A DNA stretch of 64,000 nt from an uncultured Bacteroidia bacterium (lineage in GTDB: Bacteria; Bacteroidota; Bacteroidia; Bacteroidales; CAJPTX01). Below are positions 57,087 through 59,001 of the stretch, one piece after another. Made by a program: the position numbers and the translations under genes. The DNA is taken from NCBI GenBank assembly GCA_965240855.1, contig CBDEMG010000060.1:8006-72005 (forward strand), written 5' to 3'. Every line of letters starts with the position of its first letter. Within the stretch, counting starts at the first letter, position 1. The notes under the pieces were generated by a model. The model made no database searches. It had not been told where the DNA came from and saw only the letters and a list, made by a program, of their open reading frames with translations.

Positions 57087-59001
57087 TGCTCCCTCCTGAG
57101 CTGCCTGAGAAAAGTAACGATGAGACATCTTGCGCTAGTAGATATACTTTACGATTCCCATCGTGCGAAAAAGAGAGTAGGGTTGCATAGAGGAAGCTAT
57201 TGCTATAGCCCTTCCACGACAATAACCGTGTCTGCGCAAAGCCATCTAAAACTCTTGTCCAGACCGTAGCAAAGACATCTTCCTGACCACTAGTCGTATA
57301 TGCGGTGGCAACATCCTTCAAATTCATTGTAACCAATTCCACGATGCCTTTTTGATGCACATAGTCTTCAAAACGTCTATTACCTCGTACATAGATCCCC
57401 GTTTCTGCAAACTCTGCATAATATACTGACTGCTCTACCACATTCTCCAAAATCTCAAACTCCTGCGTCCTACGCGTCATCTCCTCTTGCGTGGCCTGCA
57501 TTTCCTCCATATTTTGCCGCATCTCCTCCTCTTGCGAACGCATGGCTTCGCGCTGCTCTTGCGATTGTTGAAGAAGTTCTGCCGTCCGCTGATTGGTCTG
57601 AGCTTGTTGCAAAGTCTGTGCAATACTTACAGAGAGCAACTGTGCAAAGGTGACCATATACGGAGCAAAACCCTTCAACGAAGCTAACTCGAGCACACCA
57701 AGTAGCGCATCGTCTGTCTTAAGCGGCACGAGTAACAACTCCTTCGGGGGGATATTCCCAATACCAGAAGTTATATCGCAGTACTCGGGCGGTAGTACAT
57801 CGATGTGCACAAGATCTCGTTCTATAGCACATGTCCCAACTAGCCCCTCGCCAAGAGGAAGATCTTCTTGCATATATTTTTTACGATTGTATGCAAAAGC
57901 AGAAGCAAGGTGTAGTACTGTTCCACTCTTTCGCTCTTGTGCTAAATACAATCCACCTTGCGTCGCATCAAGATAATTTACCACCCGCTGTAGCAGGATA
58001 TCTACAAGTTCGGCTATATCATTACTATTTTCTCGCAAGAGCTTGGCAAACTCCGCTAGTCCTTCGTTTGTCCAACTTCGTATACGCTCAGCCTCCTTTA
58101 AGGTCTCTGCCTCTTGCTTCTGTTTTTGTAAATTGCTTCGAAGCTCTAGCAACGAATTGCCTAACGCATCATTTAATCCCAATGGAGTATACTCCTGCAT
58201 TAGATTATCGGCAGCCAGATGACGCACAAAAGAGGTTGTATTGGAAAGCCCCTCTATGACTTTATTCAACTCCGTTACTATTGAGTTGCCCTCTAAATGC
58301 ATACTATTATTGGGCATCGGATCGGGTAAACTCCCCTCTGCTAGTAGCGAGAGATCTCGCAATAATGCTTGATTAAAACGCCTTTCACGACGCATATATA
58401 GGGTCAGCATCAACCACGCCAACAAGCTCCCTACTAAGAAGAGCCCCCAACTGTATATTCGCAATGTATTGAGCCCCGCATCAAAAACAGAATCAGAGAC
58501 CTCGATCGCAAGAAAGCAATCGAGATCGCGAACGTATGTATAAATCACCTCGCGTTCCTCTTGCTGCGAATCACCGAAATTAATGCGCATAGTACCCCTA
58601 CGACTCGGGGAGGAGGACATTAAATCCAACACCTCGCGCGAGAGACGATCGCCATCCCTGAAAAAATGGAAGTTTATCTCCCCCGTCATTTGTACAACAA
58701 ACGGATAGCCCGTATTGCCATACATTGGGTCACGAAACAAGGTCCGTATCCTTGCATGCGCTGCAGTGTCCAATTTATGGAAATCGAGATCGAGCATCTC
58801 TAGAGTTTGCGAGAACTTCTCCGCAAAGCTCTCCAATGTACGTCCCAGCTGGTCGTGCGACTCTTTGTATATCAGACGACCAAAAATGTAAAAGCTAAAC
58901 CCTAGGAAAAGGATCAGCGAACCCGTAGTTAATACTCGAGCACGCACCGAACGCCAAAGTCCTCTAGTGGCTCTTATCAAACGAGAGAAAAACTCATGCA
59001 T
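57079..59001 (-). CDS. Membrane receptor: TM - single-Cache-like ectodomain - TM - HAMP-like - GAF - EEM heptad coiled coil - PAS-like
   Basis: 640 aa with TM helices at about 24-44 and 183-203. The ectodomain contains [32 protein letters not shown] segment precedes the GAF domain (TQGGLYLA...GEGLVGTCA...LGVLELAS). The coil is [20 protein letters not shown], followed by a roughly 110-aa PAS-like C-terminus. Confidence 0.8.
   Translation of the reverse strand: [640 protein letters not shown]

Follow-up and report, generated by a model that had tools for sequence, protein, structure and literature searches.

A heptad-spaced glutamate-pair helix shared by a membrane receptor and a SiaA-like phosphatase is a candidate methyl-accepting segment in Bacteroidota

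We analyzed a 64-kb stretch of DNA from an uncultured Bacteroidia bacterium (64,000 nucleotides of contig CBDEMG010000060.1, assembly GCA_965240855.1; hereafter, the window), and more precisely a 640-residue membrane receptor encoded between two cheR-type genes on its minus strand. After its GAF domain, this receptor carries a long helix in which pairs of glutamates recur every seven residues, and an initial annotation of the sequence had proposed this helix as the methyl-accepting segment of a receptor that is not a methyl-accepting chemotaxis protein (MCP). Our analysis confirms the observation, which proves stronger than first reported. Judging from sequence and gene neighborhood, we consider it reasonably probable that the glutamate-pair helix accepts methyl groups within an adaptation system of non-MCP type, which would feed a Sia-type partner switch. 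The interpretation first given is partly supported and is the best available, with two corrections: the core partner of cheR and cheB is the same helix in a downstream PP2C-type phosphatase, and a true MCP is encoded nearby.

Reverse-strand translation returned the 52-residue segment singled out by the initial annotation, at the same coordinates and with the same three EEM motifs in heptad spacing. EEM occupies residues 492-494, 499-501, and 506-508; the EE pairs have their first Glu at 491/492, 499, and 506; and Met stands at 494, 501, and 508. With heptad position a assigned to the Met/Leu column (residues 487, 494, 501, 508, and 515), f and g are occupied by the Glu pairs, and polar residues stand at d (Q483, Q490, N497, T504, and K511). 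As far as its sequence tells, the motif is a marginal coiled coil with flanking acidic columns, from which we infer the dimer geometry. A six-frame pattern scan found two copies of the motif in the window, one in the receptor and one in the PP2C phosphatase, and none beyond these.

In the AlphaFold2 model of the receptor (built on 71 homologs; mean predicted local distance difference test score, pLDDT, 86.5), an N-terminal transmembrane helix is followed by an alpha/beta domain (residues ~79-169) and by a second transmembrane helix that extends into a helical, HAMP-like region; then come a linker helix (279-324), the GAF domain, the unbroken helix that carries the motif (447-525), and a PAS-like alpha/beta domain (527-625). 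GAF (327-465) is the sole Pfam match, and the heptad-spaced pairs do follow it, on one long helix, as had been stated. The Cache label given to the receptor holds less well: Pfam matches no Cache family in it, and what stands of the label is the modeled alpha/beta domain between the two transmembrane helices, together with the Cache-type matches of relatives. No enzymatic output domain was found by Pfam or in the model, Pfam did not find the MCP signaling domain (MCPsignal, PF00015) in the receptor, and HisKA, HATPase_c, and REC are without Pfam matches in the receptor, the PP2C protein, and 61 paralogs encoded away from the operon. A PDB fold search with the full model returned GAF, phytochrome, and phosphodiesterase sensors with connecting helices, and no match informative on the motif helix itself. 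By its position between GAF and PAS and by its length, helix 447-525 is as expected for an S-helix; its conserved signature is EEE[LM]RQN..EE[LM].AT.EE. The S-helix of Anantharaman, Balaji, and Aravind is reportedly a coiled coil of ~40 residues which leads from a sensory to an output domain and has its own conserved signature; the signature found here does not appear to be the published one.

The motif is kept throughout the receptor family. A genome scan seeded by the motif gave at least 599 matching stretches, of which the best 80 loci were used, and 102 open reading frames (ORFs) from these loci were aligned (23% mean column identity). Q490, E491, E492, E493, R495, Q496, N497, E500, and E506 are invariant in these 102 ORFs; E499, E507, M494, A503, T504, and Q505 reach 90% conservation or more; and the Glu-pair segment is the best-conserved part of the family. 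One heptad toward the N-terminus, a fourth pair belongs to the family consensus (E485-E486-M487) and is degenerate here (E485-A486-M487). E/Q alternation is present at the peripheral pairs of the motif, in the receptor and PP2C alignments alike. More than 1500 database relatives of the receptor were found; of the best 120, every named one belongs to Bacteroidales or Bacteroidota, and even in relatives with an overall identity of 30-40% the motif string ending in [ML]QATQEE[ML] is nearly constant. Conservation of the heptad-spaced pairs in orthologs, which had been set as a check of the proposal, is near-complete in the 102 ORFs and in the 120 database homologs. Family members are encoded in the named isolates Williamwhitmania taraxaci, Perlabentimonas gracilis, and Ohtaekwangia koreensis, which makes the question experimentally tractable, and also in the strain Tenuifilaceae bacterium CYCD (3.9-Mb contig).

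These data also bear on the idea that the motif arose by chance in a low-complexity coil rich in Glu and Gln, for which the composition of the 52-residue segment, 48% Glu plus Gln, could be invoked. Three EE pairs at exact seven-residue spacing arose in 26 of 20,000 shuffles of the segment and in 6 of 20,000 shuffles of the whole receptor protein; the triple EEM arose in none of 20,000 composition-preserving shuffles, of the whole protein and of the segment alike. Stronger evidence comes from conservation, the pattern being unchanged in over 100 proteins whose overall identity is just 25-35%. On the shuffles and the conservation data we rejected an origin by chance or low complexity, whose probability we regard as negligible.

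The second copy of the helix lies in the PP2C protein, four genes downstream of the receptor. Both proteins have the module EEE[LM]RQNxEE[LM]xATxEE[LM] after a GAF domain, and residues 129-362 of the phosphatase align with residues 275-516 of the receptor, i.e., linker, GAF, and helix, at 41% identity (E 2e-43) over a span that includes LLHEAQQMTRELRANEDLLRQNAEEMQKTHEELERSN. Across 43 unique orthologs, the consensus of the phosphatase helix reads EL.ENEEELRQNAEEMRAT[QH]EEL, with Glu pairs every seven residues, and Pfam places a SpoIIE domain at residues 674-876 of the 877-residue protein.

The genes of this system form an operon on the minus strand, in the order cheR1, receptor, CheR2 gene, cheB, a gene for a 262-residue GAF protein, the PP2C gene, a SiaB-type kinase gene, siaC, a gene for a TerB-ABC protein, and a gene for a 307-residue protein. 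ORF coordinates and Pfam CheR matches agree with the earlier placement of the receptor between cheR and a second cheR-like gene. The same order, from cheR to the TerB-ABC transporter, recurs across Bacteroidota. Among the 80 genome loci selected by the receptor, 19 have cheR, and of those 17 have cheB, 16 PP2C, and 15 siaC, the downstream genes being found in 13-16; the missing operon genes belong to short or truncated loci. In 13 genome loci and ~30 metagenome loci, the TerB-ABC gene comes after siaC; in every locus of sufficient length, siaC is followed by both this gene and that of the 307-residue protein. Both genes probably belong to the operon. The TerB-ABC protein is a candidate output of the pathway because of this conservation directly after siaC.

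An independent test came from a metagenome scan with the CheB alignment only (80 loci), in which ORFs were labeled by BLAST and the helix was searched with a hidden Markov model (HMM). With at least 5 kb of downstream sequence (n = 35), 32 loci encode a large PP2C protein, 31 have a helix-HMM match in it, 33 have siaC, and one has an MCP gene; with at least 4 kb upstream (n = 30), 29 have cheR and 15 a helix-bearing receptor. These counts tie this cheR/cheB clade to glutamate-pair-helix proteins, above all the phosphatase, and not to MCPs. The constant partner of cheR and cheB is the PP2C protein, not the receptor, and this partner was absent from the reading first proposed.

A second operon subtype has a single cheR, and its receptors best match those of Cytophagales genomes (42-52% identity); the system is therefore not confined to Bacteroidales. 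One variant locus (L121, 6274-12768) has cheR1, cheR2, cheB, siaB, siaC, and the ABC gene, with PP2C and receptor genes absent between them. Full-text literature searches found no published description of the operon, the motif, or the receptor family; the papers of relevance were those on RsbK/RsbM and on F7 clusters, which are discussed below.

The three enzyme genes of the operon differ in what they retain. CheR1 keeps the S-adenosylmethionine (SAM)-binding motifs AGCSMGQEVYS and ASDIN, as seen in an alignment with Bacillus subtilis CheR (5FTW) and orthologs, and AGCSxGQEVYS and (A/G)(S/T)D(I/L)N, i.e., motif I and the post-I Asp, are conserved in its orthologs; because these motifs are kept, CheR1 is probably active. 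Its orthologs also share a conserved insertion, RFNL.YLDNFD...NPLNYEE. The ORF of CheR2 overlaps the stop codon of the receptor, and the ortholog alignment suggests a start at Met15. Its motif I is altered (AAFDTGEE) and the Asp after motif I is replaced in all nine aligned orthologs (TDID becoming SVYL, SSYM, ASTI, etc.; loci within L002-L078); from its sequence, CheR2 may not be a normal methyltransferase, and may be a pseudo-enzyme or a helix-binding adaptor. In CheB, S13, H40, and D133 are invariant in the PDB alignment and in the ortholog columns, and we take them, by Salmonella CheB numbering, to be the Ser-His-Asp catalytic triad. The 189-residue protein has no receiver domain, and its nearest relatives among 1.8 billion representatives are mostly stand-alone proteins of ~190 residues.

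Some close CheB relatives are fusions (P0217, P0243, P0160, P0216, and P0223), with the arrangements CheB-REC-SpoIIE, CheB-REC-HisKA-HATPase, CheR-CheB, and CheB-CBS, and these fusion partners are non-chemotaxis contexts. Two other proteins are double CheBs (P0122 and P0124). In Flexibacter flexilis DSM 6793 (L087, 9566-10585), a stand-alone receiver gene immediately precedes a receiver-less cheB whose product is 41% identical to that of the window; this cheB adjoins hydrogenase maturation genes, with no cheR or receptor gene within 10 kb.

Several points weigh against methylation of the helix. What ties it to reversible methylation by CheR and CheB is genomic linkage. CheR2 is without the Asp that binds the SAM ribose, and since CheB is without a receiver domain, a feedback route for true adaptation is not evident. 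The central glutamates do not alternate with glutamine, unlike many MCP sites, and R495, Q496, N497, A503, and T504 are as invariant as Glu, which would also be compatible with a helix whose role is purely structural or the docking of a partner. For MCP sites we take the consensus to be [ASTG][ASTG]-x-x-[EQ][EQ]-x-x-[ASTG][ASTG]; the motif has two half-sites of it, AA-QE-EE at 488-493 in most members (RS in this receptor) and EE-LQ-AT at 499-504, and the alignment check found the full consensus at no motif position. Furthermore, ~60 of the 80 motif-bearing genome loci have no cheR or cheB within 10 kb, and conservation of the motif might be independent of methylation, given these distant loci. 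Finally, the window encodes a canonical MCP that was missed in the initial annotation and could be an alternative substrate of CheR and CheB.

This MCP has a typical hairpin tip and the classical-looking sites NSASEEAASSEEIQA and SAAVAEELAAGG. It lies 14 kb from the receptor, as an orphan between UDP-glucose dehydrogenase and Mur ligase genes. A protein 99% identical to it is named MCP in a metagenome-assembled genome (MAG) labeled 'Bacteroides sp.', and its orthologs are 63-64% identical. MCPs of related Bacteroidales are orphans in all three contexts examined. As a possible substrate of CheR and CheB, the window MCP is the basis of the main rival explanation, according to which the helix is an unmethylated signaling coiled coil, serving GAF-to-PAS transmission or receptor-phosphatase pairing, and the substrates of CheR and CheB are classical MCPs, for example the one encoded at 41446-43341. 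In its favor are the true MCP of the window, with its canonical tip and canonical-looking sites (SEEAASSEE; AAVAEELAAG) and with orthologs in the same identity range as the close orthologs of the receptor, and the orphan MCPs of other Bacteroidales; the equal invariance of the non-Glu positions and the distance of most motif-bearing paralogs from cheR and cheB also agree with it. However, an MCP accompanies the cheB clade in one of 35 loci, against 31 of 35 for a glutamate-pair-helix protein, and MCPsignal has no match in the 80 receptor loci. The receiver-less CheB has relatives fused to PP2C or kinase modules and not located in che clusters, and neither CheA nor CheW was found among the window ORFs scanned, the smaller ORFs not having been scanned. 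In addition, RsbK and the CheB-CheR fusions, discussed below, are precedents for CheR-type enzymes on such helices. Taken together, we judge an unmethylated helix unlikely.

The paralogs encoded away from the operon can be read in two ways. In a Pfam census of 61 of them, all 61 have GAF, 51 HAMP, and ~50 PAS, and the sensors are dCache_1 in 33 and MCP-like_PDC_1 in 23, with Cache_3-Cache_2, sCache_3_3, 4HB_MCP_1, and hemerythrin as further types. The census found no enzymatic output domain of any kind in these 61 proteins, and MCPsignal is without a match in them, too. Several MAGs contain both an operon locus and distant paralogs (L008 with L035, and L012 with L054). Such a family matches the design principle of MCPs, i.e., variable input, a constant cytoplasmic core, and one enzyme set at one locus, and its distribution would allow CheR and CheB to act in trans. 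Equally, the scattered paralogs are the main weakness of the methylation argument.

They also count in favor of an explanation in which only the helix of the SiaA-like PP2C protein is methylated and the receptors keep the sequence for mixed dimers with the phosphatase, not as substrates. Indeed, many receptor paralogs are without local cheR or cheB, the receptor gene is present in 15 of 30 core operons as against 31 of 35 for the PP2C helix, and the receptor and PP2C modules are homologous. On the contrary, the motif is more invariant in the receptors than in PP2C, with all Glu pairs kept even in Cytophagales-type paralogs; the receptor gene, where present, usually lies between or beside cheR genes; and pairing alone would not obviously need Glu at the exposed f position. 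We hold methylation confined to the phosphatase to be quite improbable, and return to a helix that would accept methyl groups in both kinds of protein.

If this is so, CheR1 would methylate, and CheB would demethylate, the helix glutamates at f and g, both in the phosphatase and in the receptors, distant paralogs included. Neutralization of these glutamates beside the weak, polar coiled-coil core would alter helix packing, as proposed for MCPs and RsbK, and the altered packing would reset how signals pass from sensor, HAMP, and GAF to PAS and PP2C. The receptors, which have no output of their own, would pair with the phosphatase via their homologous GAF-helix-PAS modules and in this way transmit their state to it. 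The PP2C protein and the SiaB-like kinase would then set the phosphorylation state of SiaC, and SiaC would control an effector, possibly the adjacent TerB-ABC transporter. In its widest form, which we put forward tentatively and regard as rather doubtful, the proposal is that of a chemosensory-like pathway of Bacteroidota without CheA, CheW, or MCPs, in which many output-less receptors with Cache or four-helix-bundle sensors on a common core of HAMP, GAF, glutamate-pair helix, and PAS, methylated on the helix by CheR and demethylated by a receiver-less CheB, would converge through mixed assemblies on a SiaA-like PP2C phosphatase, and from there through SiaB and SiaC on TerB-ABC or another effector.

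Reversible glutamate methylation of MCPs is textbook knowledge, and Bacteroidota are better known for gliding than for flagellar chemotaxis. Outside MCPs, our literature searches found one studied case of glutamate methylation, RsbK/RsbM. Methylation of the glutamate-pair helix would mean that a Ser/Thr phosphatase partner switch has taken over the CheR/CheB adaptation module, which would there serve a large receptor family. It would also provide a compact methyl-acceptor motif for genome annotation, explain the receiver-less CheB and orphan CheR genes of Bacteroidota, and open a testable route to chemical-signal adaptation in this phylum. Were the pathway without CheA, CheW, and MCPs to prove true, it would be a third architecture of adaptive sensing, beside MCP-CheA arrays and two-component systems.

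The coordinates of all these features are collected in Table 1. Among the remaining operon genes, that of the 262-residue GAF protein gave no match to the glutamate-pair motif, its ORF ending just after the GAF domain. The Sia assignments hold at the family or domain level: the equivalog-level models for SiaA (170 bits vs. 700) and SiaC (88 bits vs. 150) are below cut-off. No gene with a GGDEF domain (SiaD diguanylate cyclase) is present in the operon, where the ABC transporter gene follows siaC instead.

Table 1. Features of the glutamate-pair helix system in the 64-kb window, with the MCP gene of the same window
Feature	Coordinates	Strand	Basis
Reported segment with the Glu-pair helix motif	57454..57609	-	Residues 465-516 of the 640-aa receptor; reverse-strand translation exact
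Motif core, residues 485-507; candidate methyl-accepting Glu 492/493, 499/500, 506/507	57481..57549	-	Per-column counts, 102 sequences
Single predicted helix, residues 447-525, from GAF to PAS-like domain	57427..57663	-	AlphaFold2, block pLDDT 80-93
640-aa receptor: transmembrane helix (TM), alpha/beta periplasmic domain, TM, HAMP-like region, linker, GAF, Glu-pair helix, PAS-like domain	57079..59001	-	Pfam and AlphaFold2
cheR (CheR1, 281 aa)	59007..59852	-	PF01739 E 4e-35
CheR-like gene (CheR2, 294 aa as ORF; start likelier Met15)	56244..57128	-	PF01739 E 2e-15
cheB (189 aa), methylesterase domain only	55675..56244	-	PF01339 E 1e-46
262-aa membrane protein: coiled-coil-like stretch and same-type GAF; conserved in operon	54883..55671	-	Pfam, alignment
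877-aa SiaA-like PP2C phosphatase: TM, linker, GAF, Glu-pair helix, PAS, PAS, SpoIIE/PP2C	52249..54882	-	Pfam; NCBIfam SiaA phosphatase-domain match
PP2C Glu-pair helix, residues ~319-362 (KTEALLHEAQQMTRELRANEDLLRQNAEEMQKTHEELERSNVQLE)	53797..53928	-	Pattern scan, alignment
SiaB-family kinase (Pfam DUF6272)	51634..52209	-	NCBIfam SiaB_fam_kinase 134 bits vs. cut-off 85; PDB 6KKO_A E 4e-8
SiaC-family phosphoprotein	51226..51606	-	PF09345 E 2e-41, 140.6 bits vs. 24.5; PDB 6KKO_C E 2.5e-16
1046-aa TerB + ABC ATPase + ABC-2 permease (ABCG-like)	48019..51159	-	Pfam
307-aa protein, no family match; conserved after ABC gene	47096..48019	-	Pfam, locus comparison
Canonical MCP: MCP-like PDC sensor, HAMP, MCPsignal; outside operon	41446..43341	+	PF00015 E 4e-25

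Some further observations concern the receptor paralogs and the host. Paralogs of ~770 residues occur in tandem, five in L060 (4414-16286), four in L072 (138-8355), and three in L056 (2109-9043), with the glutamate-pair helix near residue 627 and no cheR or cheB within 10 kb. Other proteins have several helix copies: one, in L155 (~4487-7111), has three motif matches and five helix-HMM matches; P0120 has a second motif copy after a PAS domain; and P0119 is also multi-copy. These multiple copies suggest repeated helix-PAS units. In Ohtaekwangia koreensis (L076, 8849-9406), a YfiR/HmsC-like periplasmic gene (DUF4154) lies directly upstream of a receptor paralog, in a region that adjoins haem-uptake and TonB-receptor genes. 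A 5-kb contig of a MAG labeled Thiohalospira sp. (Gammaproteobacteria; L023) encodes a motif-bearing receptor and a SiaC match, which could reflect bin contamination or horizontal transfer. In the window itself (13341-17405, minus strand), a 1354-residue protein with BspA-type leucine-rich repeats and a C-terminal sorting domain of the type IX secretion system (T9SS) fits a Bacteroidota host.

Compared with known systems, the receptor family resembles MCPs in that variable periplasmic sensors (dCache, 4HB) and HAMP are set on a constant cytoplasmic module, in many paralogs per genome, in that Glu pairs are heptad-spaced on a coiled coil (helix 447-525), and in that cheR and cheB are located in the operon of the pathway. 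It differs from them by the absence of MCPsignal and of the hairpin tip, and of cheA, cheW, and cheY from the operon; by matches to half of the site consensus only; by a receiver-less CheB; and by an output through a Ser/Thr phosphatase-kinase switch. The output side is close to SiaABCD of Pseudomonas aeruginosa, with a membrane PP2C protein (SiaA-like domain), a SiaB-family kinase, and SiaC in the same gene order. However, SiaA has no GAF, glutamate-pair helix, or PAS and no cheR/cheB partners, and here a TerB-ABC transporter follows siaC in place of the SiaD diguanylate cyclase.

A likeness to the CheB-CheR-fused PAS sensor kinases, with their repetitive EEL coils, had also been pointed out. 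A 44-residue NEEL-repeat query matched fragments of at most 77 residues, several of them named 'CheB/CheR fusion protein', and the likeness was borne out at two loci, where an ORF with such a coil stands between CheR, or a 581-residue CheB-CheR, and PAS_10/kinase pieces. In both systems, EE in the xEE[LM]xxx heptads is preceded by a small or polar residue (STNEEL there, ATQEEM here) and followed by Leu or Met, on a coil beside CheR and before PAS. In the fusions, the enzymes, the coil, and the kinase are in one polypeptide; their NEELQS-like heptad lacks the RQN and AT signature, and no GAF domain precedes it. To our knowledge, methylation of this coil is unproven.

Among chemotaxis clusters, the ancestral ('stage 1') F7 clusters, which are CheA-based, also encode anti-sigma antagonists and a serine phosphatase (PMC7184735), and they share with the present operon the presence of cheR and cheB together with partner-switch components. 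F7 clusters specify arrays based on CheA, CheW, and MCPs, none of which is found in the system described here, and their relation to it is more distant than that of RsbK/RsbM.

Indeed, the closest precedent by analogy is RsbK/RsbM of Bacillus cereus. There, a signaling helix of the hybrid kinase RsbK, whose domain order is CHASE3, HAMP, GAF, S-helix, kinase, and REC, is methylated by RsbM, an enzyme of the CheR type; this methylation controls RsbY, a PP2C protein, together with the partner switch of SigB, and reports count 127 RsbK-like kinases in 10 phyla (PMC4574943; PMC12848376). The two systems, compared by domain order and not by helix sequence, have in common a membrane sensor with HAMP, GAF, and signaling helix, an adjoining CheR-type gene, and a downstream PP2C partner switch. 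RsbK is a hybrid kinase (HisKA, HATPase, and REC) that phosphorylates the REC-PP2C protein RsbY, whereas the receptor described here has neither kinase nor receiver. Here, moreover, PP2C is fused to GAF, helix, and PAS; the switch is of the Sia type (SiaB/SiaC) and not RsbV/RsbW/SigB; and the operon brings in CheB, another CheR of degenerate type, and receptors that form a family of many paralogs. By this analogy, the glutamate-pair-helix system of Bacteroidota would be a relative of RsbK/RsbM-type non-MCP methylation, in a new form.

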